From Candidatus Yanofskybacteria bacterium (GTDB lineage Bacteria; Patescibacteriota; Minisyncoccia; 2-02-FULL-40-12; IGHO2-12-FULL-4), in assembly GCA_016185525.1 (NCBI GenBank), contig JACPNK010000003.1, positions 1 to 61,688 of the forward strand: DNA of 61,688 bases, in the 5' to 3' direction. The position numbers and the translations under genes are program-made. Of this stretch, positions 2,483-21,180 are shown piece by piece. Every line of letters begins with the position of its first letter. Position 1 is the first letter of the stretch. The notes beneath the pieces are model-generated. The model did not search any database. It was not told where the DNA came from and was given only the letters and a program-made list of their open reading frames with translations.

Positions 2483-2509
2483 TTGACCCTTTTTGACACT
2501 TTTTGATAC
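2483..2509 (+). promoter_or_regulatory. Phased triple TTGAY motif, copy 1 (TTGACCCTTTTTGACACTTTTTGATAC)
   Basis: Hexamers at 2483, 2493 and 2503, exactly 10 bp apart. Located in the divergent intergenic region between 1658..2422(-) and 2544(+). TATAAT at 2530-2535 lies 8 nt before the ATG at 2544. Confidence 0.6.
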
Positions 2510-2543
2510 CTTAAATAAACTATTGCGTGTATAATTATTTATA

Positions 2544-3629
2544 ATGGATAACCTAAATAAAAATTTAAATGTAGCCATACTGATTTCAACAAAAGATCGG
2601 CCCGACTTTATGACCCGACAGCTTCTTTATTATTCAAAACTTAAATCACCTCATCCGGTTTATATCGCGGATTCAAGCAATGACAAAAATGCCGAAATCC
2701 TAAAAAATGCCGTCAACAAATTAAAAAATGAAATATCGATTAAATATACATGGTATCCGCCCGGACCCGATAATCATGGAAGCTTGTTGGAACAGGTAAA
2801 AGAAAAATATGCTTGTGTAATCAGTGATGACGATTATCAGATACCGGCCTCTCTGGTAAAATGCGCGGAATTTTTGGAAAATAATCCGGATTACGCCGCA
2901 GCGGGCGGACGCTCGGTAAGTTTCCGCCTAAAAGAAAGCGGGCCGTACGGAGAGTTACAAAGATTGGCCGACTATCCGAGATATTCGATTGAGGCGGAAA
3001 CGGCCCGTCAGAGATTGATTGATTTCATGAAAGTTATTTATTCCATATCATTCTTCGTAAATCGGGTAGATGGCATGAAAAAAGCTTGGAAAAGCAAGCT
3101 GTATATGGCCCAGACGATGAATGAACTCATTTCTTGGAATCACTTGATTATAGCCGGAAAATCAAAATTGATTGACTGTTTAAGTCTTGTCCGGCAAATT
3201 CATGCCCAACAATACTCAATGCCTAACATTTTTGATTGGGTAACCGGTAAAAACTTCTCTGATGATTATGAGTTCTTCAAGGATGATATCGCCAAAGCAG
3301 TAGCCGAAAAAGATAATATTGACGTCCAAGACGCCAAAGAAACCGCTAAAGAAATTTTTTGGCACTATGCGCAAAAAACACTGTCTTCGGATTATAAATA
3401 TTACATTGCCAAGCAATATCCTCCTAAAAAAATGTCGAACAAAAACCTAAGGGCTGAAATTGCGAAATCATTTCCGGTTCTTAAGAAAATATACAGGTCT
3501 TATGTAAGGCGGCTTCTGAGTAACGACCCGCAAATGCATTATGAAGTACTCCAGCCAAGTTCAAAATATTACAGAGACTTTAAGCCTGTTATGGATTCGT
3601 TCACCGGTTCTTCTCCAAAAAATCTTTAA
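2544..3629 (+). CDS. GT-A-like (GT2-like) putative glycosyltransferase, paralog 1 of 3
   Basis: N-terminus VAILISTKDRPDF...PVYIADSSND and an acidic DDD motif, as in GT-A folds. Clearly homologous to the two downstream minus-strand genes. Its 3' end overlaps the convergent paralog by 29 nt. Confidence 0.6.
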   Translation: MDNLNKNLNVAILISTKDRPDFMTRQLLYYSKLKSPHPVYIADSSNDKNAEILKNAVNKLKNEISIKYTWYPPGPDNHGSLLEQVKEKYACVISDDDYQIPASLVKCAEFLENNPDYAAAGGRSVSFRLKESGPYGELQRLADYPRYSIEAETARQRLIDFMKVIYSISFFVNRVDGMKKAWKSKLYMAQTMNELISWNHLIIAGKSKLIDCLSLVRQIHAQQYSMPNIFDWVTGKNFSDDYEFFKDDIAKAVAEKDNIDVQDAKETAKEIFWHYAQKTLSSDYKYYIAKQYPPKKMSNKNLRAEIAKSFPVLKKIYRSYVRRLLSNDPQMHYEVLQPSSKYYRDFKPVMDSFTGSSPKNL

Positions 3630-4656
3630 CAATTTTAAAATCATTAAAGTATTTTGATTCCGGCCGGTCAACGTAACTGGGAGGGTAAAATTTATAGTAG
3701 ATACTCTTTAAAAGCGGTTTGCTGGAAATAAAGTATCTTAGTTTTTTAAACAGATTCCGCCTGGCAGGCGCGGATTCTCCCTGGCCAACGGATAACCAGC
3801 CGGTTTCTAAAGTAAACTGGCGCGCAAGATAGAGAATAAATATCCATTTAACAATTTTTAAGCTTTCTTTTTCCGGCACGCCCTTTTCTTGTATAATTTC
3901 CGAGAATCCTTTTTCGCAAATGCTCCACTGTTCGCCAACGGATGGCGATAGCATAAAATCGACATAAAGAAAACTGGGATTGTGGTCAAGAGAGTATCTA
4001 AGGCCGCTTATTTGCATAACATACCCCAGCTTATCAAGCATCTTAGATTTTCCGGAAATTATAAGTATAGACGCCAATAAAAATTCCGTCATACGCCCGG
4101 CCAAAGAGAAATGCCTGGTAATATTGCGTATTGACCTTTCTGTCTCAACCCTTGTAACCGCAAAACTGATAAAAACCGGGTTGAACCAAAAACTTTTTAT
4201 TCGCGCAAGCATATCCTCATTTTCAATCGATCTGCTGGATGTGGATGTTTGCTGCTCAATTAAACCATAGGGCTTACTATAGTCTTCCTGCCGGAAACGG
4301 ATATTTACTTGCCTGCCGGCGCAAGTTCCGTAATCAGGATGTTCCTCCAAAAAGTCGGCGCATTCAGAGATTGTTTTTGGAATCATTATGTCGTCATCGC
4401 CCATTTGTATGCAGTATTTTTCTTTTACTAACGGCAATATCTGATACAGAGAATCTTTTCCCGGCGGAGCCCATTGGTAAGTAATTTCAAATTTTTTGAA
4501 CTTTTTAATTCCCTCTTTTAATTTTTCAGCGTTTTTTTCGTTACTGCTGTCTAATATGTATATCGGGTGTGGGCTGTTCATCAATTCATAAAACTCAAAT
4601 TGCCTTAAAAGAAAGTCAGGACGGTTCATTGTCGGAATTGTTATAGCAACCTTCAT
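3601..4656 (-). CDS. GT-A-like putative glycosyltransferase, paralog 2 of 3
   Basis: MKVAITIPTMNRPDF...IYILDSSNE and a GDDD motif. ATGA overlap with the upstream paralog at 4653-4656. GGAG lies 9 nt upstream of the ATG. Confidence 0.6.
   Translation of the reverse strand: MKVAITIPTMNRPDFLLRQFEFYELMNSPHPIYILDSSNEKNAEKLKEGIKKFKKFEITYQWAPPGKDSLYQILPLVKEKYCIQMGDDDIMIPKTISECADFLEEHPDYGTCAGRQVNIRFRQEDYSKPYGLIEQQTSTSSRSIENEDMLARIKSFWFNPVFISFAVTRVETERSIRNITRHFSLAGRMTEFLLASILIISGKSKMLDKLGYVMQISGLRYSLDHNPSFLYVDFMLSPSVGEQWSICEKGFSEIIQEKGVPEKESLKIVKWIFILYLARQFTLETGWLSVGQGESAPARRNLFKKLRYFISSKPLLKSIYYKFYPPSYVDRPESKYFNDFKIVKDFLEKNR
3613..3808. repeat. 196-nt near-identical segment shared by tandem paralogs (copy A)
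   Basis: Matches 4665..4860 with only 2 mismatches seen by eye. Covers the C-terminal ~60 codons of paralog 2. Confidence 0.85.
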
Positions 4657-5693
4657 AAGTAGGACTCCAAAAAATCTTTAACAATTTTAAAATCATTAAA
4701 GTATTTTGATTCCGGCCGGTCAACGTAACTGGGAGGGTAAAATTTATAGTAGATACTCTTTAAAAGCGGTTTGCTCGAAATAAAGTATCTTAGTTTTTTA
4801 AACAGATTCCGCCTGGCAGGCGCGGATTCTTCCTGGCCAACGGATAACCAGCCGGTTTCTGTAGAAAATCTATAAGGATAGACAAGATAAATAAGAAATA
4901 TCCATTTAATAATTTTTAAGCTTTCTTTTTCCGGCACACCCTTTTCCTGTATAATTTCCGAGAATCCTTTTTCGCAAATGCTCCATTTCTCGCTAATAAA
5001 ACTAAAATTAGCCGTAAGGCTGTGGTCAAAGGATCGAATGCCGCTTATTTGCATAACATACCCCAGTTTATCAAGCACCTTAGATTTTCCGGAAATTATC
5101 AATATGGACAATAGCAAAAATTCCAACATGTCCTCCAGAAGACCAAAATGTTTTGTAATGTTTCTTATTGTTTTTTCTGTTTCAGTCCTTCTGACTGCAA
5201 AGCAGATAAAAGTCGGGTCGGACCAGAAATTTTTTGCCCGCACAAGCATATTCCCATCTTCAACTGACCTGCCTAGCGGAAGCGTTTGCTGCTCAATCAA
5301 ACCGTAGGGTTTACTATAATCTTCCTGTCGGAAACGGATATCTACTTGTTTACCGGCGCAAGTTCCGTAATCAGGATGTTCTTCTAAAAAGTCGGCGCAT
5401 TCAGAGATTGTCTTTGGAATAACAATGTCATCGTCTCCTATCTGAACACAGTATTTTTCTTTTATTAAAGGCGTTAATTGATACAAACAATCTTTTCCCG
5501 GCGGAGCCCATTGATAAGTAGTCTCAAAGTTTTTGAACTTTTTAATTCCTTCTTTTAACTTTTCGGCGTTTTCTTCGTTACTGCTATCCAAGATATATAT
5601 GGAATGAGGACTACTCATAAACTCATAGAACTCAAACTGTCTCAATATAAAATCAGGGCGGTTCATTGTTGGAATTATTATAGCAACTTTCAT
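4653..5693 (-). CDS. GT-A-like putative glycosyltransferase, paralog 3 of 3
   Basis: MKVAIIIPTMNRPDF aligns with the paralog 2 N-terminus, so the ATG at 5693 is preferred. The ORF is open to 5777, but that extension would run into the regulatory motif at 5761-5787. Confidence 0.6.
   Translation of the reverse strand: MKVAIIIPTMNRPDFILRQFEFYEFMSSPHSIYILDSSNEENAEKLKEGIKKFKNFETTYQWAPPGKDCLYQLTPLIKEKYCVQIGDDDIVIPKTISECADFLEEHPDYGTCAGKQVDIRFRQEDYSKPYGLIEQQTLPLGRSVEDGNMLVRAKNFWSDPTFICFAVRRTETEKTIRNITKHFGLLEDMLEFLLLSILIISGKSKVLDKLGYVMQISGIRSFDHSLTANFSFISEKWSICEKGFSEIIQEKGVPEKESLKIIKWIFLIYLVYPYRFSTETGWLSVGQEESAPARRNLFKKLRYFISSKPLLKSIYYKFYPPSYVDRPESKYFNDFKIVKDFLESYL
4665..4860. repeat. 196-nt near-identical segment shared by tandem paralogs (copy B)
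   Basis: Counterpart of 3613..3808. The identity ends 5 codons before each stop codon. Confidence 0.85.
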
Positions 5694-5760
5694 ATAGGAT
5701 TCGTGGAAATTATTTGTTAAATAATATAATTTAGATGAAACAAAGTCCATAGCCGACTTA

Positions 5761-5787
5761 TTGACACCTTTTGACATCTTTTGATAC
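5761..5787 (+). promoter_or_regulatory. Phased triple TTGAY motif, copy 2 (TTGACACCTTTTGACATCTTTTGATAC)
   Basis: Hexamers at 5761, 5771 and 5781. Only 9 nt separate the motif from the GTG start at 5797. Located in a divergent intergenic region. Confidence 0.6.
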
Positions 5788-5796
5788 GCTTATCTT

Positions 5797-6930
5797 GTGA
5801 GCAAAACAAAGATAAAATTTATTCCTTATGGCCGGCAAGTAATTGACGAGAGCGACATCAAGGCCGTTGTAAAGGTTTTGCGCTCGGACTGGCTGACACA
5901 AGGCCCTGCTGTAAGGCAATTTGAAGAGTCTTTGGCTAAATACTGCAACGCAGAATACGCCGTGGCTGTTTCAAACGGCACAGCCGCTCTTCACTTGGCA
6001 TATTTAGCAGCCGGCTTAAAAGCCGGTGATGAAGTTATCACCACGCCCAATACATTTGCCGCAACAACCAATATGCTCTTGGCTATCGGGGCAAAACCTG
6101 TTTTTTGCGATATACGGCTGGACAACTACAACATTGATGAGTCAAAAATTGAAACGCTGATCACGCCAAAAACAAAAGCCATAGTCCCCGTCCACTTTGG
6201 CGGCCATCCATGCAATATGGACAAAATATTGAGTCTGGCCAAAAGACACAATCTGCTAGTAATTGAGGACGCCTGCCACGCCCTTGGCGCTTCTTATAAA
6301 AACAAAAAAATCGGCGGTATCGGCGACATGTCTGTTTTCAGCTTTCACCCGGTTAAATCCATAACCACCGGCGAAGGCGGAGCAATTCTGACGAACAGTC
6401 AAGATTTTTATAAAAAACTACTGCATCTGCGCACTCATGGCATAACCAAAGATGCCGATGGTTTTAATGTCATGACCGCGCTTGGTTACAACTACAGAAT
6501 TACCGATATTCAAACGGCTTTGGGAATAAGCCAGCTAAAAAAACTGGGCAAGTTTGTAAAAGCCAGACAGCAAGTTTTCAATTCTTATAAAACAGAACTC
6601 GCAAGCGTGAAAGAAATCTCTACACCGTCAATAAGTAAAAATACCGTTTCCGCAAATCATCTTTTTGTCATCAGGACAAAAGATCCGGTAAAAAGAAACC
6701 CCCTCGCCAATTTTCTCAAACAAAACGACATCGGCGTAAATTTTCACTATCCAATGGTCTATTCCCACCCATACTATCGGGAAAATGGGTACCAAAATGT
6801 TACCCTCAAGAATGCAGATCTATATCATAATTCTTGCATCACTCTTCCGCTTTATGCAACCTTAAAAATACCTGAAATTAAATACATTTGTAAAAAAATT
6901 AAAAAATTCTTTACGCAAAATAACCCGTGA
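5797..6930 (+). CDS. pseC: DegT/DnrJ/EryC1-family sugar aminotransferase, PseC-like
   Basis: N-terminus IPYGRQVIDESDI...SDWLTQGPAVRQFE and NGTAALHLA match my recollection of the PseC-type signature. A PLP-lysine region (SFHPVKSIT) is present. GTG start. Confidence 0.7.
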   Translation: MSKTKIKFIPYGRQVIDESDIKAVVKVLRSDWLTQGPAVRQFEESLAKYCNAEYAVAVSNGTAALHLAYLAAGLKAGDEVITTPNTFAATTNMLLAIGAKPVFCDIRLDNYNIDESKIETLITPKTKAIVPVHFGGHPCNMDKILSLAKRHNLLVIEDACHALGASYKNKKIGGIGDMSVFSFHPVKSITTGEGGAILTNSQDFYKKLLHLRTHGITKDADGFNVMTALGYNYRITDIQTALGISQLKKLGKFVKARQQVFNSYKTELASVKEISTPSISKNTVSANHLFVIRTKDPVKRNPLANFLKQNDIGVNFHYPMVYSHPYYRENGYQNVTLKNADLYHNSCITLPLYATLKIPEIKYICKKIKKFFTQNNP

Positions 6931-6952
6931 CAAACTCCCAAACTTCGAACTC

Positions 6953-6981
6953 TTGACATCCAATGGTTTTTAAAATATAAT
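6953..6981 (+). promoter_or_regulatory. Consensus sigma70-type promoter
   Basis: TTGACA (6953-6958), exactly 17 nt of spacer, then TATAAT (6976-6981). GAGGG at 7010-7014 lies 6 nt before the GTG at 7021. Confidence 0.75.
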
Positions 6982-7020
6982 ATTTTAGACTTTCGGGGTC
7001 TTTAAAAACGAGGGCGAAGA

Positions 7021-8019
7021 GTGACAAAGAAGAAAAAAGTATTCCTGGCAATAATGGTTGTCATTACATTAATGGTGATGTCAACTATTTTTTTATCAGG
7101 TTGGCAGCAAACTGTATTCTTGAGAGTGGCCTTAGCTAACGGGATAGCATCAATACTTATAAAAACCGTCGCCAGTTCTTTATCAAGAACAAAAAAGTTA
7201 AGCCTCCAGTTTTTCACCTGCTTTATTTTATCTCTTATTTTTGGAGCTATTTCAACCGATCTCGACTCTAGGCAATTTAACGGTTTTTTCTTGCTGGTAA
7301 TAGGTATGGGTCTGATAAATAGTGGTGCCAATTACTGCCAATGGCGGGCCATGGACATGAATGTGACTAAAACATCACTTTTCACCCAGGGTGATGATAT
7401 TCTATCGATGGTCTTGGCTTATTTCATCCTAAATGAGAGTCGGATCATAACATTATCGTGGAGTCTAGGCATTGTCCTGGTCTTGATTGCCGCGGTTCTG
7501 TTCGTTACTGCTCCCATCGCCATTCCCAAAGAAACAGACGACAAAAATAAAGCCTCTCTTCGAGAACAAGGCAGAAAAAACAATCAGGCAATTTGGAAAT
7601 GGGTCATGGGTTATAACCTGGGCTGGGGACTTACAAGTTTTATGTTCAGAGTTTTGAGCCTTAACGGTTTATCTATATTTTACTTCCTGCCAGCCTGGTA
7701 CGGGAGCAGTTTCATCGGTTCACTGTTCATTCTTTTTCTCGGCAACAAGGAAGAGGCTTCCGGTAAATTAACTTTGAAAAATACTTACCCCGTACTACTG
7801 CTCTCTCTGGTAGTATTTGTCAGTCTCGGTCTTTTTTATCAGGCTTTCGCCCTTGCTGAAGTGTTGAAGGTGCGACCGATATTCCAAATGGGCCAAGTCA
7901 TGATACCGCTTCTGGTCGGCCTATACGTATTCAATGAGTTCAAAGACTTCACCAAGCAGAGTAAATTGGCGATGATCATGGGTTTAATAGGAACGCTAGT
8001 CATATTTGCAAATATCTAA
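7021..8019 (+). CDS. Polytopic membrane protein, DMT/EamA-like 5+5 TM architecture
   Basis: About 10 hydrophobic helices are split by a charged central loop (PKETDDKNKASLREQGRKNNQ). Both halves end in G-rich helices as in EamA repeats. Family call is tentative. Confidence 0.55.
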   Translation: MTKKKKVFLAIMVVITLMVMSTIFLSGWQQTVFLRVALANGIASILIKTVASSLSRTKKLSLQFFTCFILSLIFGAISTDLDSRQFNGFFLLVIGMGLINSGANYCQWRAMDMNVTKTSLFTQGDDILSMVLAYFILNESRIITLSWSLGIVLVLIAAVLFVTAPIAIPKETDDKNKASLREQGRKNNQAIWKWVMGYNLGWGLTSFMFRVLSLNGLSIFYFLPAWYGSSFIGSLFILFLGNKEEASGKLTLKNTYPVLLLSLVVFVSLGLFYQAFALAEVLKVRPIFQMGQVMIPLLVGLYVFNEFKDFTKQSKLAMIMGLIGTLVIFANI

Positions 8020-8056
8020 AACGTTCTACAAGATCCGTTAAGGTAAATTTTTATCT

Positions 8057-8090
8057 CCGCACTTACGCACGAGTGCGGGGTTTTATTTTA
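8057..8090 (+). terminator. Rho-independent terminator
   Basis: CCGCACT (8057-8063) pairs with AGTGCGG (8072-8078), followed by GGTTTTATTTT. Confidence 0.7.
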
Positions 8091-8178
8091 AACAACACGC
8101 AAAGCTTTATATGTCAATATGGTATTAGTAGAAAGGCTGTTGTATAATCCATCCATATTAACCATTTAACATTCAACT

Positions 8179-9993
8179 ATGCAAACTTACTTACTCTTCG
8201 AAATAGCCAATTCCTGTGCCGGGTCGAGCAAATTAATTAAAAAATTAATAGATTCTCTGCCGGATACAAGCCTGCACCCGGCTTCGCCTCAACAAAAAAA
8301 TATTGGCGTTAAATTCCAAATTTATAAGTACAATGAAATTGCTTTGCCTGACTATGAATGGTATCCGGTTTATAAAGAGACTTTCGTAAATGCACAAAAC
8401 TGGAAAAAGATTTTTGTTCATACAAAGAGCAAAGGACTTGATGTTTGGATAGATGTTTTTGATCTTTACAGCGTTGAAGTGCTTAAAAATAATCTGCCCT
8501 TGGTAACCGGAATAAAACTGCAATCTTCGGTTTTAAATAATCTGAAAGTATTGACGGCTCTATCTGAAGCAATAAAAGATAGCAAGGTTAAAGTAATGTT
8601 AAATGTTGCGGGAAGAGATCTGCCAAATATCAAAGCCTTGCTCGCTGATATTAAGTCAAATTATTTCAATAATGAAATAACCCTTCAAGCCGGTTTTCAG
8701 GGCTATCCGACTGACAAAGAAGACTTGACCGTAAGCAAGGTCCGGATCTTAAAATCTGAATTTCCCGACACAATCGTATCTTATGCTGATCATGTTGACG
8801 GTTCTTCTCCTCTCGCTTTTGATATTCCGGTTTTCGCCGTGACGGCCGGAGCTGGACATATCGAAAAACATGTCTGCTTGGACAGGAAAAATACAAAATA
8901 CGACTTCCAGTCGGCAATTGAGCCTTACGAATGCGATTTACTAATCTATAAGATTAAAGATGCTGAAAAAATCTTGGGAACAAAATTTATACCCGACAAA
9001 GAAGCAAATTACCTAAAAACAACCATAGAAAAACCAATCGCCTCTGTTCCTCTGCGAGCTGGGGATATCATAAACTTCAAAAATTTTGATTTCAGAAGAA
9101 CTGGGCAGGACGGCCTGACTGTTGCCGAGATAAAAGATCTAATGAGTAAGAGGTATATACTTGCAAAAGACATAAAACCCGGAAAAACAATCACAAAAAC
9201 CGATCTTAAAAAAGCCCGGATAGGCGTAGTCATCGCCTGTCGAATGAAATCAACGCGCCTTAAGCACAAAGCCATACTACCCATTCAGGGCTTGGCATCA
9301 ATTGAAAGATGCATTCTGAACGCTAAAAAAATTAAATCAGCCGATGAAATAATCTTGGCCACATCAACCTTAGAGGAAGACCGGGTTCTGAAAAAATATG
9401 CCCTGAAACATAAGATTCATTTTTTTGCCGGAGATCCGGAAGATGTAATGCTCCGATACTTAGGCGTGGCCAAAAAATATAAACTTGACATCATCATCCG
9501 TGTTACCGGTGATTGTCCGATCGTGTCGTATGAAATGGCCGAATTTTTACTTGAAAAACACTTTGAACGCGGCAATGACTATACCGGCCCCAAAGATTAT
9601 TGCACCGGCCAAAACAGTGAAGTTTACAACGTAAACACTCTCAAAAGAGTCATGGAATACCTTGGCGACGCCAGACACTCCGAATATATGACCTGGTACA
9701 TGATAACCAACAAAGACATCTTTCAAGTTGATATGCATAACCTGCCCAAAGAATGGATTCGAACTTACCGGCTGACTTTGGATGTCCAAGAAGATTTGGA
9801 TATGTTCAACGCACTATTTGAAAAATTAGGCAAAAAAGAAGCCAGCATTAAAAATGTTTTTGCTGTTATTGATAAGGAGCCTTGGATCCACGAACTCAAC
9901 GACGCCATGGTCCTCAAATATAAATCGGACAAAAAGCTGATAGACATGTTAAACAAAGAAACACGGATAAATCCAAAAAGAATCACTAAATGA
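8179..9993 (+). CDS. Fusion protein: NeuB/SpsE-like TIM-barrel + SAF domain + SpsF-type cytidylyltransferase
   Basis: N-terminal LFEIANSCAGS and HIEKHVCLDR resemble NeuB motifs, with NH replaced by SC. A SAF-like segment (PLRAGDII...KPGKTITKTDL) follows. The C-terminal IACRMKSTRLKHKAILPI is the RMxSxRLxxK cytidylyltransferase motif. Confidence 0.7.
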   Translation: MQTYLLFEIANSCAGSSKLIKKLIDSLPDTSLHPASPQQKNIGVKFQIYKYNEIALPDYEWYPVYKETFVNAQNWKKIFVHTKSKGLDVWIDVFDLYSVEVLKNNLPLVTGIKLQSSVLNNLKVLTALSEAIKDSKVKVMLNVAGRDLPNIKALLADIKSNYFNNEITLQAGFQGYPTDKEDLTVSKVRILKSEFPDTIVSYADHVDGSSPLAFDIPVFAVTAGAGHIEKHVCLDRKNTKYDFQSAIEPYECDLLIYKIKDAEKILGTKFIPDKEANYLKTTIEKPIASVPLRAGDIINFKNFDFRRTGQDGLTVAEIKDLMSKRYILAKDIKPGKTITKTDLKKARIGVVIACRMKSTRLKHKAILPIQGLASIERCILNAKKIKSADEIILATSTLEEDRVLKKYALKHKIHFFAGDPEDVMLRYLGVAKKYKLDIIIRVTGDCPIVSYEMAEFLLEKHFERGNDYTGPKDYCTGQNSEVYNVNTLKRVMEYLGDARHSEYMTWYMITNKDIFQVDMHNLPKEWIRTYRLTLDVQEDLDMFNALFEKLGKKEASIKNVFAVIDKEPWIHELNDAMVLKYKSDKKLIDMLNKETRINPKRITK

Positions 9994-10559
9994 TAACTAT
10001 ATATATATTGGGCGGATTCTTAAAAAAAAATCGCGACGGAAGTTACAGCAGTGACGGGTTTAGCTACTTGAGAGTTTTGGCCGGATATTATCTTTACAAA
10101 AAATTATCCGAAAAGGACAAGGTTGAATTGATTGTTTCCGGGAGTAGGGGAATTTATAGAGGAATTCCTGACGTTCCTCGAGTAGCAACGGTAATGAAAC
10201 GGGAACTGATAAAATTGGGGCTAGACCCAAAAGAAATAAAAACAGACAAAACAGATTTTACTTACAAAGAGCTTGTCTGGCTGAAAAAATATATAGTTAA
10301 AAAAGCGGGCAAAGGATTCATTGTATCTAATGCCTATCACTTACCACGAATTAAAACTATGATTAGCCTTCTTCCAGAATTAAAAGAATTAAAAAATATA
10401 GTTAAATTAGTCCCCGCAGAAAAAATAGCAGTGAAACTTAATAAGAAATTAAAATCAAGAATTAAAAAAGATAATAAAAGTTTTGAAATGAAAAGAATTA
10501 TTGCTTCAGAGAAAAAAGGTATAAAAGCTCTAAAAGAAGGAAAGTATAAATTTACTTGA
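9990..10559 (+). CDS. DUF218/YdcF-like protein
   Basis: ILGGF...IVSGSRG and SNAYHLPRI match the DUF218 pattern (GG, SGG, HxxR). ATGA overlap with the upstream gene. Confidence 0.6.
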   Translation: MITIYILGGFLKKNRDGSYSSDGFSYLRVLAGYYLYKKLSEKDKVELIVSGSRGIYRGIPDVPRVATVMKRELIKLGLDPKEIKTDKTDFTYKELVWLKKYIVKKAGKGFIVSNAYHLPRIKTMISLLPELKELKNIVKLVPAEKIAVKLNKKLKSRIKKDNKSFEMKRIIASEKKGIKALKEGKYKFT

Positions 10560-10615
10560 CAAATTATCTGAAAAAATCTAAGATTCACCAGATTCTTTAA
10601 ATTTAAGGCTTAAAA

Positions 10616-11713
10616 ATGAACATAAAACCAATAAAGATTGATACGCCCAAAGGCACTCGTTTAATCGGCCCCGGCCAGCCGACTTTTATCGTTGCGGAAA
10701 TATCGTGCAACCATCAACAGAATTATGCCGAAGCAGTTAGGCTGGTAAAAGCCGCCGCTAAAGCCGGCGCTGATGCAGTCAAATTCCAAACCTACACCCC
10801 GGATACTATAACCTTAAATTGTGATAATCCCCTGTTTGTAATAGGCGGAAAAGATAACCCGGATTCGTGGCAAAAATTGACGTTCTATTCTATCTACCAA
10901 AAAGGTTACACGCCTTGGGAATGGCTGCCTAAACTTAAAAAACTGGCTAAATCTCTGGGCCTGGTCTTCTTCACTTCTGTCTTTGACGAAACGGCAGTTG
11001 ATTTTAACGAAAAAATGGGTGTTCCATTATATAAAGTCGCGGCTTACGAAGCAACCCACGTTCCTCTACTCAAAAAAATCGCTTCAACCGGCAAACCCGT
11101 TATAATTTCCATCGGATTCGCCTCTCAAAAAGAATCTCAAGAAGCGGTTGAAACACTTAGAAAAGCCGGGGCCAAAGAAATTGCAGTTCTGCACTGCTTG
11201 ACCTCATATGCGGCTACGCCTAACTCATCAACAACACATTTAGCAACAATCCGAGACATTGAGAACAGATTCAATGTTATCAGCGGGCTGTCTGATAATA
11301 ACGGGGGGATTGAACTGCCTGTTATGGCTGTTTTGTCCGGAGGGCATATAGTGGAAAAACATCTCAATATGCGCCACGGCAACAAAAGTTTTGATGACCG
11401 TTTTTCGATTGATCCCAAAGAACTGGCGATGATGGTAAAAAAGATTCGTGAAGCAGAAAAGTTTTTGGGCACAGTTCATTATGGACCAAACAACGACGCC
11501 GAAAAACACAACCGCAATTTTCGACGTTCAATTTTTGTTTCACAAGCCATTAAAAAGGGACAGAAATTTACAAGACAGAATATTAAAGTAGTCAGACCGG
11601 CATATGGTCTTCACACAAAATACTTTGATAAAGTTCTTGGCAAAGTTGCCTCGACAGACATTCAATTTGGCGATCCTTTAAAGTTCGCTCATGTTGTTGA
11701 CTTAAAGAAGTAA
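10616..11713 (+). CDS. pseI: Nonulosonic acid synthase, pseudaminic acid synthase (PseI)-like, with C-terminal SAF domain
   Basis: VAEISCNHQQ, KFQTYTPDTITL, YKVAAYE, GLSDN, VEKHL, and a C-terminal RRSIFV...KKGQKFTRQNIKVVRP...GLH SAF region. The pattern matches my recollection of PseI more closely than NeuB. Confidence 0.75.
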   Translation: MNIKPIKIDTPKGTRLIGPGQPTFIVAEISCNHQQNYAEAVRLVKAAAKAGADAVKFQTYTPDTITLNCDNPLFVIGGKDNPDSWQKLTFYSIYQKGYTPWEWLPKLKKLAKSLGLVFFTSVFDETAVDFNEKMGVPLYKVAAYEATHVPLLKKIASTGKPVIISIGFASQKESQEAVETLRKAGAKEIAVLHCLTSYAATPNSSTTHLATIRDIENRFNVISGLSDNNGGIELPVMAVLSGGHIVEKHLNMRHGNKSFDDRFSIDPKELAMMVKKIREAEKFLGTVHYGPNNDAEKHNRNFRRSIFVSQAIKKGQKFTRQNIKVVRPAYGLHTKYFDKVLGKVASTDIQFGDPLKFAHVVDLKK

Positions 11714-11747
11714 GACTGGTGAGATATAATCACACTGGTCTTTTTTT
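11714..11747 (+). terminator. Hairpin plus T7 run between pseI-like and hisH-like genes
   Basis: GACUGGUG (11714-11721) pairs with CACUGGUC (11733-11740), including two G-U pairs, followed by TTTTTTT (11741-11747). The loop contains TATAAT (11725-11730). The ATG at 11750 follows. Confidence 0.45.
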
Positions 11748-11749
11748 AT

Positions 11750-12358
11750 ATGATCGGAATTATAAATTATGGCGTCGGAAATTTAACATCCGTGAAAAAT
11801 TCACTGGACTTTTTAAATATTCCAAATGCCGTAACCGATAGGCCGGAGGAGATAAATAACTTTGATAAGATAATTCTGCCCGGAGTCGGCGCCTTCGGTG
11901 CCGCGATGGAAAAATTAAATAATTTCGGTTTTGCCGATAAAATTAAAAACTTTGCAAATGCCGGTAAGCCCGTTTTGGGAATTTGTTTGGGCATGCAGCT
12001 TCTTTTTGATGAGAGCCGAGAATACGGCCACCACAAAGGACTAGGCCTTATAAAAGGAAGGGTTCTGCCGTTCAGTGAAAAAGTCAAAAGTTTGCCTCTT
12101 CCTCAAATCGGATGGAATAACATAACCAAAGAAAATGCTTCGCCGCTTTTGGAAAACATTGAAGATAACTCAAGTTTTTATTTTGTCCATAGTTTTTACT
12201 GCAAACCCAAGAATCAAGATCTCGTAACGGCCAGCTCCGATTACGGGATAAAATTTGCAGCCGTTATCCACGAAAAGAACATCTTCGGCTGTCAATTTCA
12301 CCCAGAAAAAAGCCAGTCAGCCGGACTTCAGATTTTAAAAAACTTTAACGACTTATGA
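11750..12358 (+). CDS. hisH: Glutamine amidotransferase, HisH-like (WbuY-type in glycan loci)
   Basis: Class I GATase motifs: LPGVGAFG, GICLGMQLL (catalytic Cys), FHPEKS. No other his genes are in the window. Confidence 0.85.
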   Translation: MIGIINYGVGNLTSVKNSLDFLNIPNAVTDRPEEINNFDKIILPGVGAFGAAMEKLNNFGFADKIKNFANAGKPVLGICLGMQLLFDESREYGHHKGLGLIKGRVLPFSEKVKSLPLPQIGWNNITKENASPLLENIEDNSSFYFVHSFYCKPKNQDLVTASSDYGIKFAAVIHEKNIFGCQFHPEKSQSAGLQILKNFNDL

Positions 12359-13140
12359 TAAAAAGGAGATTAATTCCTGTGCTTTATATTAAGAATGGCT
12401 TTATTGTGAGAAGCGAAGGATTTTCGTACCATCATAATATAGGCAATGTGATAGCTGAAGCCGGACGATACAATGGTTGGGACGTTGACGAGTTGATCTA
12501 CATAGACATAAGCCGGGAAAAAAATTACGATCTTCGCCGCGACGACTATAACGTAAACTCCTATAACTCCATTGGCGCCATCATCAGCGAAATATCAAAG
12601 GTTTGTTTTATGCCCCTGACTTTCGGCGGAGGCATCCGAACCATTGATGATGTTAGTTTTAGAATACAAAACGGAGCTGACAAAGTAACTCTAAACACCG
12701 GAGCGTTTGAAAATCCAAAACTCATAACTCAAGTGGCTGAAAAATACGGCTCTCAAGCTATGGTAATTTCAGTAGACTATAAAATTATTGACGGCAAACC
12801 TGTTGTGTTTACCGACTTTGGCCAAAAAAATACCGGTAAACTTGTTTACGACTGGACGAAAGAATGCGAAAATTTAGGCGCCGGAGAAATATTTCTTAAT
12901 TCTGTTGATCGAGACGGGAAAGCCAACGGTTATGACACGGAAACCATCGGCAAAGTTGTCGCTTCCACCAAATTACCGGTAGTCGCCTGCGGCGGCGCCG
13001 GCAGTCCGGAGGATTTTGTAGATTTGGCAAAAAAAACGAATGTATCAGCGATAGCCGCCGGAAATATATTCCATTTCACCGAATTGAGTTACCCCAACGC
13101 AAAAATATTACTTAAAAAAGAAGGATTAAACTTTAGATGA
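12355..13140 (+). CDS. hisF: Imidazole-glycerol-phosphate-synthase cyclase subunit HisF-like (WbuZ-type)
   Basis: RLIPVLYIKNG...DELIYIDI...GGGIR...ACGGAG...AAGNIFHF is the HisF TIM-barrel pattern. ATGA overlap with the hisH-like gene. Confidence 0.85.
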   Translation: MIKRRLIPVLYIKNGFIVRSEGFSYHHNIGNVIAEAGRYNGWDVDELIYIDISREKNYDLRRDDYNVNSYNSIGAIISEISKVCFMPLTFGGGIRTIDDVSFRIQNGADKVTLNTGAFENPKLITQVAEKYGSQAMVISVDYKIIDGKPVVFTDFGQKNTGKLVYDWTKECENLGAGEIFLNSVDRDGKANGYDTETIGKVVASTKLPVVACGGAGSPEDFVDLAKKTNVSAIAAGNIFHFTELSYPNAKILLKKEGLNFR

Positions 13141-13143
13141 TAA

Positions 13144-14343
13144 ATGAATAAGGTCAAATATTGCACTAATTGCGTGTATCCGACAAGCTCGGCTGTTCCC
13201 CTTGCCTTTGATGACAAGGGGGTTTGTTCCGGTTGCCGAACCAGCCAAGAGAAAAAAAACATAAACTGGGACGAGCGCAAGAAAAAATTTGAGAAGCTTA
13301 TTGAAGAATACCGAAATAAAAACGGTACCGGTTACGATCTGATAATTCCTGTTTCCGGAGGCAAAGATAGTTATTTCCAAGTCCATCTGATGAAAAAGGT
13401 GTACGGACTAAATCCCCTGCTAGTTACATATAACGGCAACAACTATACTCCGACTGGCATGGAAAATTTGCTCAACATGCGAAATGTTTTCGGAGTAGAC
13501 CATGTATTTTTTACCGCCAATGTTAACGTGCTTAAAATTCTAAATCGTCTCGGCGTACAAATCTTAGGCGATATGCAATGGCATTACGCTTCCGGTATTT
13601 ATACTTATCCGATTAGAGTAGCCGTAGAAACCAAAACTCCTCTTATGCTCTGGGGAGAACACGGCCACATGGATTTGGGCGGAATGCATTCATACAATGA
13701 CTTTGTGGAATTTACATATCGCTATCGGCATGAGCATGTCATACGCGGATACGAGTGGACAGATTTTTTGAAACGCGCGCCGGAATTCGGCGAAAAACTC
13801 ACCAAGCAACAGCTAATCCCCTGGATGTATCCTTCGGACAAGGAGATAGCCGGTATCGGCGTCCGCGGCATTTACACCGCTAATTATTTTAAGTGGGACG
13901 CAAACATCCACGGACCGTTGATGATTAAAAAATATGGGTTTAAAGTGCCAAAAGAGCCATTTGAAAGAACATACAGAAAAATGTCCAACCTTGACGACAT
14001 GCACGAAAATGGCGTTCACGACTATTTGAAATTCATAAAATTCGGCTACGGCCGGGCAACCGACCATGCCTGCAAAGACATCCGCTCCGGGATTATGACC
14101 CGCGACCAAGCCATAAAAATCGTTAAAAAAATGGACTCCATAAAACCAAAGGACACTTACCGCTGGCTTAAATATGTCGGCTGGACAGAGAAAAAGTTTG
14201 ACCAAATCGCCGACACATTTCGCGACCCCAGAGTCTGGTGGATAAAAGACGGACAGTGGTGGAAAGATAACCTTTGGGGAAAACCATCATCTTATGGTAA
14301 AGTGCGCTTAGACCCTAAACAACAAAAAAAATATCAGGCTTAA
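13144..14343 (+). CDS. N-acetyl sugar amidotransferase (PP-loop ATPase, WbuX/PseA-like)
   Basis: N-terminal Cys cluster CTNCVYP...CSGC plus the PP-loop SGGKDS. Adjacency to the HisH/HisF homologs is the classic trio. Confidence 0.8.
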   Translation: MNKVKYCTNCVYPTSSAVPLAFDDKGVCSGCRTSQEKKNINWDERKKKFEKLIEEYRNKNGTGYDLIIPVSGGKDSYFQVHLMKKVYGLNPLLVTYNGNNYTPTGMENLLNMRNVFGVDHVFFTANVNVLKILNRLGVQILGDMQWHYASGIYTYPIRVAVETKTPLMLWGEHGHMDLGGMHSYNDFVEFTYRYRHEHVIRGYEWTDFLKRAPEFGEKLTKQQLIPWMYPSDKEIAGIGVRGIYTANYFKWDANIHGPLMIKKYGFKVPKEPFERTYRKMSNLDDMHENGVHDYLKFIKFGYGRATDHACKDIRSGIMTRDQAIKIVKKMDSIKPKDTYRWLKYVGWTEKKFDQIADTFRDPRVWWIKDGQWWKDNLWGKPSSYGKVRLDPKQQKKYQA

Positions 14344-14345
14344 CT

Positions 14346-14786
14346 ATGGAACTAACCGTCAGACCGGCACAACTTGGCGATGCGCAAAGAATTTGGGAAA
14401 TCAGAAACGAACCGGCATCTTTGGCAGTCGCGGCCAGCCAAGACATGATTCCTCTGGCTCAACATGTTGCTTGGTTCAATAATAAATACTTTGAGGACAA
14501 GGATAATGTTTGTTTTGTAGCTGAAGTTAATCAGAATGTCGTCGGATATTCCCGTTTTGATCTAAGCGGCGATCACTACCTAAACTCAATCGCCGTTTCA
14601 TCCTCAATGCATGGCAAAGGCATCGGCACTCTTCTGTTGGGTCAGTCCGTAGCACAGTTAAAAACAGACAAACCAATCCACGCCGAGGTGAGAAAATACA
14701 ATTTGGCATCCGTAAAAATATTTGAAAGGAACGGATTTCAAAAAATATCCGAAGACGACAAAAATATATATTACCAGTTAATATAA
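14346..14786 (+). CDS. GNAT-family N-acetyltransferase (possible PseH role)
   Basis: 146 aa. HGKGIGTLLL acetyl-CoA-binding motif (Q/RxxGxG/A-like). Located in the nonulosonate cluster. Confidence 0.7.
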   Translation: MELTVRPAQLGDAQRIWEIRNEPASLAVAASQDMIPLAQHVAWFNNKYFEDKDNVCFVAEVNQNVVGYSRFDLSGDHYLNSIAVSSSMHGKGIGTLLLGQSVAQLKTDKPIHAEVRKYNLASVKIFERNGFQKISEDDKNIYYQLI

Positions 14787-14812
14787 AAGACCCGAAAAGG
14801 TCTTTATCTTTT
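14787..14812. terminator. Hairpin terminator between convergent genes
   Basis: AGACC (14788-14792) pairs with GGTCT (14799-14803), flanked by an A-run upstream and T-rich sequence downstream. Confidence 0.55.
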
Positions 14813-14885
14813 GTTAGGATTCATGATAATTCAGAATAGCTTTCGCAACACGCTCGGTATAAATGACTATGGAAATGCCTTTGTG

Positions 14886-15344
14886 TTACCTTGCTTTTAC
14901 TGTCCAAACATCGCCCCACTTATACGGGTCAAAGCGTTTGTCATCTTTGAGAGATTCCTGCGTAGTGGCGCTTGAAGCGCAAACAAGAATAGTGTCGTCA
15001 GAAAGAGAAACCCAGCCGTTGGCATAAAAAGGCGGGATTATTATTAAATTATTTTTTCTTGCCGAGCTTACAAATTGAAACTTTTCGTCCGGTTTGTCGG
15101 GATTTAAAGCGACAAATTTTGCCGACCCGGACACGATAACAAAAAATTTCCATTCTTTTTTATGGTAGTGGAAACCCCGCACAATTCCTTTGCTATCATT
15201 ACAAACATAATACATTCTTTTAACCGCGACACTCTTGGGAGCAATTTCTTTTAAGCCGTTTATAAAAGGCGCAAAGATTCCTCTGTCATCGGCAAAAACA
15301 GGATATTCAACAGCTCTTGGCTTATTGTGGTTTATTTTTTCCAT
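14886..15344 (-). CDS. RmlC-like cupin sugar 3,5-epimerase/ketoisomerase
   Basis: DDRGIF...VRGFHYH...IIIPPFYANGW pattern of dTDP-4-dehydrorhamnose-epimerase-like cupins. Confidence 0.65.
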   Translation of the reverse strand: MEKINHNKPRAVEYPVFADDRGIFAPFINGLKEIAPKSVAVKRMYYVCNDSKGIVRGFHYHKKEWKFFVIVSGSAKFVALNPDKPDEKFQFVSSARKNNLIIIPPFYANGWVSLSDDTILVCASSATTQESLKDDKRFDPYKWGDVWTVKAR

Positions 15345-16309
15345 ATTTTTTTATTGTCCTTCATTAAACCCGCTAAATGTTTTTCATTAAAATGAACGGG
15401 TTCTTCCGAAGACGCTCTGTTAAGACTGGCGAGGGTCGCCATCTCTTTTATACCATGGCCTAAATTATATTTTAATCCCTTAAGCAGTCCCGCTTTTTTT
15501 GCCTTATCCGTGTCAACGTGATAATTGCGTTCATCTTGAAATGGCTGTTCGGTCGCTTCAACTTTGCAATTTGTCAATTTGCCGATTTTTTTGGCCAAGT
15601 CTTTTATTTGAGAATTTTCGGTAGTAAGATTGTAAATTCCTTTTGCGCTGCTACCGAGACCGTTAACAAAAGCTCTGGCAATATCTTTTACGTGGATAAA
15701 AGGCCTCCACTGGGTGCCGCCAAAATAAGTTAGCTTACCCTCATTAACAGCCTTAAAACTTAATAAGTTAACGGCTAGGTCTAGACGAATTCTAGAATGA
15801 TGGTCAGAAACGCCGTAAGCGGTGCCGACGCGATATATCAAAACATTCGGATGTTTGGCAAGGACTGACTCTACTTCCAGTTTGCTTTTGGCGTAAAGCG
15901 AGAGGGGTTGCGTCGGCGACAGTTCGTCAAGCATTGAAACGCTCTTGCCGTAAACCGAACAAGTTGAAGCAAAAAGTATCCGTCCCTTATAATTTTTGAC
16001 TAGCCACTTAACAGGTTCAACGTTAACCGCTCTGGTCATCCATTCGTCTATCTGACAGCCCGGGTCGCCGACAATCGCCGCCAGCCAAATAATATGAGTG
16101 TACTTGGGCAGTATGGATTTGAGTCTTTTATAATCCCGAATATCGCCATAAATAAAATCAACCGGTTTCATATATTGATGCTCGTAAACAAGCTTGTCGT
16201 AAACGCTGAATGAGATTTTTTTAGCAAGCAAAACATCAGTTATCGCCCCACCAATATAGCCGGCTCCGCCAACCACAAGAACGTTGATTTTTTGAGAATT
16301 TCTAATCAT
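15332..16309 (-). CDS. NAD-dependent sugar epimerase/dehydratase (extended SDR)
   Basis: VVGGAGYIGG Rossmann motif, STCSVYG, YAKSK catalytic YxxxK. Confidence 0.8.
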   Translation of the reverse strand: MIRNSQKINVLVVGGAGYIGGAITDVLLAKKISFSVYDKLVYEHQYMKPVDFIYGDIRDYKRLKSILPKYTHIIWLAAIVGDPGCQIDEWMTRAVNVEPVKWLVKNYKGRILFASTCSVYGKSVSMLDELSPTQPLSLYAKSKLEVESVLAKHPNVLIYRVGTAYGVSDHHSRIRLDLAVNLLSFKAVNEGKLTYFGGTQWRPFIHVKDIARAFVNGLGSSAKGIYNLTTENSQIKDLAKKIGKLTNCKVEATEQPFQDERNYHVDTDKAKKAGLLKGLKYNLGHGIKEMATLASLNRASSEEPVHFNEKHLAGLMKDNKKIWKK

Positions 16310-16355
16310 TTTGCTATAATAACAAAGATAAGTCGCAAAGCAAGATGTCTACCTG

Positions 16356-16382
16356 TTGACATCTTTTGACACCTTTTGATAC
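16356..16382 (+). promoter_or_regulatory. Phased triple TTGAY motif, copy 3 (TTGACATCTTTTGACACCTTTTGATAC)
   Basis: Hexamers at 16356, 16366 and 16376. The motif ends 15 nt before the ATG at 16398. Located in a divergent intergenic region. Confidence 0.6.
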
Positions 16383-16397
16383 TCTTAAGACGTCCTT

Positions 16398-17300
16398 ATG
16401 CTAGTAAGTATTGCGAACAAAATCAAAGTTATTCCAGGTTATCTATATAGGAACTATGTCGCTCCTAAAATTTATAGCATTCTAGACAGAAAGATTTTGT
16501 TAAAGAATTTGGAGCTTAAAAACAAATATGTCGGCCAGCGCTGTTTCATTATTGGCGCCGGACCCTCCATAGCCGACACCGACCTTTCGCGATTGAACCG
16601 AGAGTACACTTTCGTGGTTAATGAATTTGAGAAAAACAAACAGTATAATTCTTTAACACCCACATTCCACATCATATCAGAGTCAAACTATTTTACCGAA
16701 AGCGGACCGGAATATTGGCGTAATCGTTTTAAAGAAAAAAGTCGTGACGTGTCCGTAAGCACAACCATGATTTTTAACTTAGCGGCAATACCGTTCATTG
16801 AGAAACACAGCTTATTCAAACAGCATAAAATATATTATGCGGGCACACAAGGAATTTTCAGCGACAATCTGCCCTTCAATATAAACCTTGACCACTACGT
16901 TCCCAACCCAAAAAACTCAATTTTAATGTGCCTGATAGCCGCTGTCTGGATGGGCTTTAGTGAAATTTACCTTCTTGGATGCGAGCATAGTTTTCTGGCA
17001 CAACCGCTTGGTCCAAACAAGTCGTTATCGTTCGGCCACAGTTACGGTCACGAAATTTCCGAATCAGATAACGTTTCTATTGAAGTTTTAAAAAAATACA
17101 TTACACCCAGAGAGATGGGCTTTAACTATGAAATGAATATGGCCAGCGTGTTGCAGTTATTCAAAAACTATCGATTGTTTTACGCTAAAGCCCGTAAAGC
17201 CCACTCCGACCTACAAATATTCAATGCGACTCCCAATAGTTTTCTGGATATTTTCCCCATGATAAACTTTGAGGATATAAAACTAGCGACTAGTGGCTAG
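16398..17300 (+). CDS. Putative nonulosonate (sialyl-type) transferase, GT42/DUF115-like motifs
   Basis: CFIIGAGPSIADTDLSRL...FVVNEF resembles the Cst-II-type IIAGNGPSL...FRCNQF. SILMCLIAAVWMGFSEIYLLGCE resembles TSGVYMCAVAIALGYKEIYLSGID. A GHS motif lies downstream. The comparison is from memory. Confidence 0.45.
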   Translation: MLVSIANKIKVIPGYLYRNYVAPKIYSILDRKILLKNLELKNKYVGQRCFIIGAGPSIADTDLSRLNREYTFVVNEFEKNKQYNSLTPTFHIISESNYFTESGPEYWRNRFKEKSRDVSVSTTMIFNLAAIPFIEKHSLFKQHKIYYAGTQGIFSDNLPFNINLDHYVPNPKNSILMCLIAAVWMGFSEIYLLGCEHSFLAQPLGPNKSLSFGHSYGHEISESDNVSIEVLKKYITPREMGFNYEMNMASVLQLFKNYRLFYAKARKAHSDLQIFNATPNSFLDIFPMINFEDIKLATSG

Positions 17301-17310
17301 TGGCTAGGTA
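17283..17310. repeat. Heptanucleotide tandem tract CTAGCGA-CTAGTGG-CTAGTGG-CTAGGTA
   Basis: Four 7-nt units span the stop codon (17298-17300) of the transferase gene and end 6 nt before the TTG start at 17317. Confidence 0.8.
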
Positions 17311-17316
17311 AAAATT

Positions 17317-19805: not shown

Positions 19806-19914
19806 AAGTCAATTTTTACTTTTTAATTTAAAATTTTTACTTAATTTGCAATAACTAATTTTAAAAAAATTAAAAATTCATTAAAAATTGAAAAGTGAAA
19901 ATTAAAAATTTTTT

Positions 19915-21120: not shown

Positions 21121-21137
21121 TTACCACCAAATTAAAA

Positions 21138-21180
21138 CCCGGCACTTTCTAAAAAGAAAGGAAAGTGCCGGGTGATTTTT
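21138..21180. terminator. Bidirectional rho-independent terminator
   Basis: An 11-bp stem, CCCGGCACTTT (21138-21148) with AAAGTGCCGGG (21162-21172). T-runs lie on both strands (TGATTTTT on plus, TTTTAATTT on minus). It sits between convergent genes. Confidence 0.8.

Follow-up and report, generated by a model that had tools for sequence, protein, structure and literature searches.

Glycan genes make up nearly all of contig JACPNK010000003.1 from a Candidatus Yanofskybacteria bacterium, and the whole of that contig, 61,688 bp at ~40% G+C, is the window considered here. Its left 21 kb holds genes of a pseudaminic-acid-type pathway, among them PseC (5797-6930), PseI (10616-11713), a NeuB-cytidylyltransferase fusion, a WbuX/HisH/HisF-like amidotransferase set and a GNAT protein, together with three TIGR04440 glycosyltransferase paralogues, an MptE-like (DUF115) protein, a methyltransferase and a carbamoyltransferase; the rest has many GT4 and GT2 transferases and Wzy_C-TPR and PMT_2 proteins. 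The subject of this account is a 27-nt motif, TTGACNNNTTTTGACANNTTTTGATAC, which recurs in three intergenic regions of the left part. The organism belongs to the Candidate Phyla Radiation (CPR, Patescibacteria), a group of tiny and mostly uncultured bacteria that comprises a large share of bacterial diversity with very small genomes. Literature searches on the motif string, on CPR promoters and leaderless mRNAs, on CPR nonulosonic acids and on Saccharibacteria start sites found nothing relevant and, as far as they show, the promoters and regulons of the CPR are essentially undescribed.

Three exact copies of the motif (0 mismatches), all on the plus strand, are present at 2483-2509, 5761-5787 and 16356-16382, with a 10-bp period reported at all three sites by Tandem Repeats Finder. 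Allowing up to 3 mismatches yielded no fourth match in the 61.7 kb of the window, looser three-unit and two-unit patterns gave no additional copy there, and 0 of 100 dinucleotide-preserving shuffles of the window contained any match. The three-copy motif is real and far beyond chance, and the original prediction of three copies on the same strand with none elsewhere in the window is upheld. Its placement of each copy between divergently transcribed sugar genes agrees with the gene coordinates: copy 1 is between 1658-2422 (−) and 2544-3629 (+), copy 2 between 4653-5693 (−) and 5797-6930 (+), and copy 3 between 15332-16309 (−) and 16398-17300 (+). For copy 2 this holds after revision of a start, since the minus-strand open reading frame as listed, 4653-5777, would overlap the motif, and its likely start is ATG 5693. 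The distances claimed from the motif end to the plus-strand start codons, 34 nt (ATG 2544), 9 nt (GTG 5797) and 15 nt (ATG 16398), are likewise correct. The constituents of the copies, with the promoter elements as predicted, are as follows.

2483..2512, + strand: motif copy 1; −35-like TTGACC at 2483-2488, middle unit TTGACAC at 2493-2499, third unit TTGATAC at 2503-2509
Copy 1 −10 region, + strand: extended −10 TG at 2504-2505, hexamer TACCTT at 2507-2512; predicted transcription start site ~2519, leader ~25 nt
5761..5790, + strand: motif copy 2; −35 TTGACA at 5761-5766, middle unit at 5771-5777, third unit at 5781-5787
Copy 2 −10 region, + strand: TG at 5782-5783, TACGCT at 5785-5790; predicted transcription start site 5797, the G of the GTG start (leaderless)
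16356..16385, + strand: motif copy 3; −35 TTGACA at 16356-16361, middle unit at 16366-16372, third unit at 16376-16382
Copy 3 −10 region, + strand: TG at 16377-16378, TACTCT at 16380-16385; predicted transcription start site ~16392, 6-nt leader

Core-promoter features of the motif

The promoter assignment draws on a logo of 102 non-redundant motif instances, in which positions 30 and 37 were outside every search pattern. Position 30 is T in 86% of them and position 37 is A in 67%. Conservation sets in sharply at position 1 and declines past position 30, with the sequence 5′ of position 1 and beyond position 38 being unconserved. T30 is also present in 8/8 motif copies from loci picked by protein and not by motif. 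Positions 1-6 are TTGACA or TTGACC in the three window copies, and over the 102 instances their per-position conservation of 92-100% is partly by construction. T25, A26 and T30 constitute TAnnnT, with TG at positions 22-23 and a spacer of 18 bp to the −35; the last T of this −10 (position 30) lies beyond the 27 nt originally delimited. In the arrangement envisaged, unit 1 (TTGACA) would act as the −35 element, unit 3 (TTGATAC plus nnT) would supply an extended −10, TGa-TAYnnT, after the 18-bp spacer, and transcription would begin at position 37, 10 nt past the 27-mer, that is at the PseC start codon 5797 and slightly 5′ of 16398.

The motif is always oriented toward the adjacent gene. Between the 27-mer and the start codon there are most often 9 nt (15 cases), so that the A of ATG falls on position 37; this distance is 9-12 nt in 30/81 instances and at most 40 nt in 67/81. 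This clustering of start codons 9-12 nt past the 27-mer argues for leaderless or short-leader mRNAs. The motif is very probably a sigma-70-type core promoter of the adjacent gene, and the earlier claim that it overlaps the core promoter or transcription start site, giving very short leaders, is supported by the −35, the 18-bp spacer, the TGn-TAYnnT and the positions of start codons in ~80 instances. A different register, in which the middle unit serves as the −35 and a −10 is at positions 34-39 (copy 1 reads TTGACA-17-TAAACT in a consensus scan), was rejected, as the logo is without TAnnnT there.

Leaderless expression may extend well past the motif. At ~11/53 window genes a TAnnnT starts 12-13 nt before the start codon, examples being 15332-16309 (−), 8179 (+), 24598-25557 (−), 40750-41925 (−), 43124-45223 (−) and 45227-46660 (−), and few genes have a Shine-Dalgarno sequence. 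From this shared −10-to-ATG geometry, the rarity of Shine-Dalgarno sequences and a consensus promoter at 6953-6981, leaderless mRNAs and an E. coli-like sigma-70 specificity look general here, which suggests, on sequence grounds, that leaderless mRNAs may be the norm in this CPR organism. The extended −10 leaderless promoters of Actinobacteria and Deinococcus are similar in having TGn-TAnnnT ending 6-7 nt before the start and in dispensing with a Shine-Dalgarno sequence. They are, however, generic classes without a conserved spacer, whereas here a specific 27-30-nt version marks one regulon.

Distribution, downstream genes and a candidate regulator

A deliberately loose pattern, applied to one genome per species, gave 113 loci (individual loci of this and the other searches are referred to by L numbers). 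Some three quarters of the 113, from Flavobacteria, Akkermansia, Sulfurovum, cyanobacteria and other groups, have nothing to do with the window motif, being either 10-mer microsatellites of the form (NNTTTTGACA)n or chance matches rich in T; only the TTGACAYYTTTTGACAYYTTTTGATA class is the same element. That class, TTGACAC[CT]TTTTGACAC[CT]TTTTGATA[CT], is confined, a few exceptions aside, to CPR bins: Saccharibacteria, Yanofsky-, Wolfe-, Buchanan- and Falkowbacteria, Paceibacterota and Parcubacteria. A tight scan of metagenomes added 67 loci, mainly from groundwater and sediment, with Rifle and Hainich among the sources of L114-L180, and genome and metagenome loci combined amount to ~80 non-redundant instances. 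The motif is thus not ‘locus-specific’ as had been supposed; it recurs across Patescibacteria genomes and groundwater metagenomes. Flanks are unrelated between instances and this, with the abrupt edges of conservation, indicates that the copies have been kept by selection and do not reflect recent duplication or mobility.

Some of the scan products are of separate interest. Three bins labelled Gammaproteobacteria (L029, L110 and L112) have the CPR motif beside a CPR-type gene, the helix-turn-helix (HTH) gene described below in L029 and L112 and a carbamoyltransferase gene in L110. The (NNTTTTGACA)n arrays (L006, L007, L008, L028, L042, L068, L084, L086 and others, with GGTTTTGACA x 8 in an Akkermansia bin and several Flavobacteria) resemble microsatellites of the same TTGACA-containing unit. 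A T-rich look-alike, TTGACATTTTTTGACATTTTTTGATAT, occurs in putative phage contigs of 194 kb and 133 kb (L114/L200/L201) that are also in a viral collection; it has no regulon gene nearby and is probably unrelated. Since the only match among viral contigs was this look-alike in the 194-kb contig (the same as L114), a phage origin of the motif was rejected.

In relatives the motif is retained at orthologous intergenic regions, ahead of orthologues of all three window genes. Sites orthologous to copy 1 precede the same glycosyltransferase family in L120, L126, L168 and L175; those orthologous to copy 2 precede PseC orthologues in L116, L167, L173 and L176, with the ATG 9-15 nt past the motif; and those orthologous to copy 3 have the window orientation in L113, L142, L144 and L172. 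L113 is in a Candidatus Yanofskybacteria bin contig, MGKI01000014.1, with which the window locus is syntenic at 76-81% nucleotide identity. In the epimerase/MptE-like intergenic region of L075, L121, L122 and L196 the motif is reversed and hard against the epimerase gene (the stretches compared were window 16310-16397, L075:5357-5438, L121, L122 and L196:9916-10000). The two orientations may be due to a bidirectional leaderless promoter cassette having been inverted in the course of evolution or, with lower likelihood, to phase variation by inversion. Of four loci ascertained by way of the MptE-like protein, L196 has the motif with 3 mismatches and L199 has two copies of it. L075, in contig CAYZNJ010000032.1 labelled Saccharibacteria, has 76-87% nucleotide identity to window 14231-21873 over several kb, a likeness that points to lateral transfer of a glycan locus between CPR classes or else to a mis-binned contig.

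In 31/78 instances the downstream gene, the most frequent one, encodes an 81-aa HTH_17 protein. The others are PseB-like dehydratase (6), PseC, HisF/WbuZ-like, TIGR04440 glycosyltransferase and MptE-like genes (5 each), a pyruvate-kinase-barrel/PUA/ATP-sulfurylase/APS-kinase fusion (4), epimerase (3), and cytidylyltransferase and sulfotransferase-like genes (2 each), and NeuC-like, carbamoyltransferase and methyltransferase genes also occur. Besides the window, four loci have the TIGR04440 family downstream of the motif and four have MptE-like orthologues there. The best reading of these comparisons is that the genes would form a coherent surface-glycan regulon conserved in Patescibacteria. 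The fusions that the motif appears to drive are of ~750-910 aa (L118:3328-6060, L019:5158-7398, L123 and L145) and comprise a pyruvate-kinase barrel, PUA_2 and ATP sulfurylase, with longer forms adding APS kinase, and sulfotransferase-like genes are under the motif in L135 and L178; such sulfate-activation and sulfotransferase-like genes suggest that some CPR bacteria may make sulfated glycans.

The 81-aa protein scores 43 bits with Pfam HTH_17 (cut-off 27) and 37 with the TIGR01764 excisionase family (cut-off 28.8), and C-terminal to its HTH domain is a very basic conserved helix. Its family has 875 clusters at 90% identity; the 120 closest to the query all have 70% identity to it or higher. 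In a test free of ascertainment through the motif, homologues were found by exact protein sequence. The motif was upstream in 5/5 distinct contexts so obtained (mismatches 0, 1, 1, 2 and 5), with the ATG 9-12 nt after it and, in all five, an ABC_membrane+ABC_tran exporter gene starting 0-8 nt after the HTH gene, within a glycan locus. The HTH gene is on the same contig as motif-bearing sugar genes in MGKI01000014.1 (L113+L181), MGKQ01000001.1 (L033+L048), C687J35174_10000276 (L128+L165) and Ga0209210_1000142 (L184). An AlphaFold model of the protein (pLDDT 84.6) has a winged helix and a long helix, and in Foldseek it comes closest to two complexes of BldC with DNA, 6AMA and 6AMK (probability 1.0, target-normalised TM 0.72-0.79, rmsd 1.6-1.8 Å), followed by NmlR of the MerR family, GlnR, RacA, RdfS and the Xis of mycobacteriophage Pukovnik. 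The model and family matches agree with a small stand-alone winged-helix domain that is MerR-like.

The window itself has no candidate. No transcription-factor domain was found among its scanned open reading frames of at least 100 aa and tblastn of the 81-aa protein against it gave no match, both in keeping with the original statement that no regulator gene is visible there. As to the kind of binding protein first suggested, winged-helix or response-regulator, the winged-helix part now has a candidate in the BldC-like HTH_17 protein; the response-regulator part fares badly, with none seen near any copy.

Weighing promoter, operator and rival explanations

Is the motif anything besides a promoter? 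The middle unit, for which a −35 and −10 have no call, is kept as TTGACAC, TTGACCC or TTGATAC even in copies found without use of the motif. A fourth in-phase unit 5′ of the −35 is present in 6/83 instances, where ~1 would be expected by our own estimate, and L032 also has four units. As a plain sigma-70 promoter would have no use for a fourth unit or a conserved spacer, the motif seems to be more than a promoter. In the model preferred here, three, sometimes four, TTGAYAC units at 10-bp steps on one face of the DNA would form an operator, to which the 81-aa HTH_17 protein would bind head-to-tail. The HTH gene heads an HTH-ABC exporter operon with the same motif, so autoregulation is proposed, and the outcome would be occlusion of RNA polymerase, with autorepression and co-repression of pseudaminic-acid, glycan-tailoring and export genes. 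Repression by occlusion is the simplest sign because the array spans the −35, the spacer and the −10, and the elements are already near consensus; alternatively, the 18-bp spacer, which is slightly long, could be distorted for activation in the manner of MerR/BldC. The model as a whole, promoter-operator and HTH_17 protein together, is given a probability of roughly 0.6.

Several points weigh against this model. The regulator is assigned by comparative genomics alone. A gene for the 81-aa protein is missing from the window, which at 61,688 bp is the entire contig; distance accounts for the absence, since in the closest relative found, a Yanofskybacteria bin, ~46 kb separate the HTH gene from the orthologue of copy 3. 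Foldseek gave weak E-values (5e-3), as is usual with a domain of 50 residues, and searches of PDB sequences with the protein and its profile gave no match. Through its extra C-terminal helix the 81-aa protein could dimerise as MerR does, and palindromes would then be preferred to direct repeats. Most instances were collected with the motif as search pattern, so that invariance within the 27-mer alignments is partly by construction, and the unbiased sample is small, with 5 HTH contexts and 4 MptE contexts. Two of the latter (L197 and L198) lack the motif within 20 kb, which may be a true absence or may be due to their first operon starts lying beyond the DNA fetched. Finally, copy 2 implies a leaderless GTG start, and leaderless GTG starts are inefficient in some bacteria.

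A constitutive strong sigma-70 promoter and nothing further, with the spacer conserved by RNA polymerase contacts or by the curvature of two phased T4 tracts and the HTH gene merely highly expressed, would explain the −35, the TG, the −10, the start-codon distance and the directionality through RNA polymerase alone, and generic consensus promoters do occur in the same window. Yet the 18-bp spacer is near-identical across bacterial classes despite fully drifting flanks, which is unusual for sigma-70; it holds a third exact in-phase copy of the heptamer, with the fourth in-phase units 5′ of the −35 being further to explain; and that the commonest downstream gene encodes a DNA-binding protein is a classic sign of an autoregulated factor. 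This explanation is accordingly judged unlikely. Were the array instead the operator of another regulator, for instance of OmpR/PhoB type, the HTH_17 protein would be an ABC exporter partner or have an architectural role. Direct repeats at 10-11 bp phasing over a −35 are, as is generally known, typical of PhoB/OmpR boxes (PMC5859096). However, neither Response_reg nor Trans_reg_C nor any other transcription-factor domain is present in the neighbourhood gene tables or the window, the array reaches over the −10 unlike pho boxes, and no DNA-binding gene other than that of the HTH_17 protein is consistently associated with the motif; such a regulator appears quite improbable.

Inversion deserves consideration because excisionases are the family described by HTH_17/TIGR01764, because the fold matches include Xis and RdfS, and because the promoter cassette faces one way in some relatives and the other way in others at the epimerase/MptE-like intergenic region. 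The HTH_17 protein might then be an excisionase-like directionality factor, and the array a recombination site inverting a promoter cassette in phase variation of glycan. Against this, there is no recombinase domain in the gene tables of 12-20 kb around 6 HTH and 4 MptE loci, sequence inspection revealed no convincing inverted repeats flanking the motif, phage contigs lack the motif save for the unrelated T-rich variant, and most copies have the promoter-like feature of being at a fixed 9-12 nt before a start codon. Recombination is a most improbable explanation.

The promoter-operator model has partial counterparts among known systems. On promoter DNA of Streptomyces, BldC multimerises cooperatively and head-to-tail along direct repeats, whose number varies (PMC5859096). 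It is the best structural match, a small single-domain MerR-like winged helix-turn-helix protein, and its direct-repeat arrays are akin to the 3-4 phased units here. Nevertheless, identity with the 81-aa protein is ~24%; BldC has 68 residues, without the basic C-terminal helix; its repeat is AATTnnnnC at ~9 bp as against TTGAYAC at 10 bp here, where binding is inferred; its sites do not coincide in extent with the −35 and −10; and it is a developmental regulator of actinobacteria whereas the genes here are CPR glycan genes. PhoB/OmpR boxes share tandem direct repeats, phasing of about one helical turn and overlap with the −35 region, but here there is no response-regulator gene, the array runs from −35 to −10, and the units equal the −35 hexamer and do not replace it. 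Classical MerR promoters have in common a MerR-fold winged helix-turn-helix protein and an operator in a longer-than-optimal spacer (18 bp here). With palindromic operators, coiled-coil dimers and 19-20 bp spacers on their side, and direct repeats, an 18-bp spacer and 81 aa without an effector domain on this side, a classical MerR-type promoter/operator was rejected.

Lambda Xis, with three head-to-tail protomers at ~10-bp steps on one DNA face (X1-X1.5-X2), belongs with other excisionases to the same HTH_17/Xis domain family as the 81-aa protein. Here, in contrast, there is no integrase or att-like context, the sites serve as promoters for sugar genes of the chromosome, and the 81-aa protein is conserved as a housekeeping-like single-copy gene ahead of an ABC exporter.

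Near base-for-base conservation across CPR lineages, with a half-site that coincides with the −35 hexamer, is a notable property of the element, and its regulon may be the first recognisable one of the CPR. What the finding offers is a CPR promoter architecture (consensus −35, extended −10, leaderless mRNAs), a sharply defined surface-glycan regulon (pseudaminic acid, amidino, carbamoyl and sulfate tailoring, export) and a named candidate regulator. A bolder possibility, somewhat doubtful at present, is that of a pan-Patescibacteria master switch of the cell-surface glycan, in which a BldC/Xis-like protein would polymerise over the whole core promoter with a half-site that is itself the −35 hexamer. 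If true, it would co-control its own gene, a glycan/lipid ABC exporter, pseudaminic-acid synthesis, sulfation and other tailoring; no CPR transcriptional regulon would have been defined before it, and it might bear on the way in which these episymbionts appear to their host cells. Attachment to hosts and recognition by phages or immune systems could plausibly depend on surface glycans in such episymbionts. The motif is also of potential use in annotation, to locate the true start codons of genes and the starts of operons in metagenome bins of CPR bacteria, and it could serve as a native promoter for the emerging Saccharibacteria genetic systems.

Neighbouring genes and minor observations

The genes next to the copies in the window, with promoter usage as predicted, are these.

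2544..3629, + strand: TIGR04440-type glycosyltransferase, probably driven by copy 1 (NCBIfam TIGR04440 153 bits, cut-off 70)
5797..6930, + strand: PseC, aminotransferase of the pseudaminic acid pathway, probably driven by copy 2 (NCBIfam PseC 450.7 bits, cut-off 423.5)
16398..19805, + strand: unit probably driven by copy 3, comprising the MptE-like (DUF115/Maf-type) protein, methyltransferase and carbamoyltransferase (same gene order in L196)
15332..16309, − strand: divergent epimerase gene, with its own predicted generic leaderless promoter, TTGCTT-16-TATTAT, 6 nt before the ATG

The genes 3′ of PseC up to 14786 (the NeuB-cytidylyltransferase fusion, PseI, the WbuX/Y/Z-like amidotransferase set and GNAT) may be co-transcribed with it, and the GT4 gene 19915-21120 is possibly part of the copy 3 unit. 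Within the pse cluster an EamA-like transporter gene, 7021-8019, is bracketed by a separate perfect consensus promoter, TTGACA-17-TATAAT, at 6953-6981 (+) and a strong terminator-like hairpin at 8055-8080 (+), and may be a transcription unit of its own. Exact-sequence look-up of the window PseC gave no match, probably owing to its GTG start being translated as V; that of the MptE-like protein led to two short contigs identical to the window, with no added context. No Rfam family matched at gathering score in the whole window, and a known RNA family or riboswitch was rejected on that account and because the motif is also upstream of the predicted transcription start site.

At 8179-9993 (+) a NeuB-like N-terminal domain is fused to a C-terminal cytidylyltransferase (CTP_transf_3), with a bona fide PseI being separate at 10616-11713. 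The three paralogous TIGR04440-type glycosyltransferase genes are 2544-3629 (+), 3601-4656 (−) and 4653-5693 (−), of which the tandem minus-strand pair has an identical 23-nt stretch, at 3748-3770 and 4800-4822, that was flagged by a terminator scan. Further along, a perfect 20-bp tandem duplication at 49071-49112 is upstream of the gene 48340-49059, and neighbouring peptidoglycan-binding-domain genes in the region 46691-49574 have several short-period repeats inside them.

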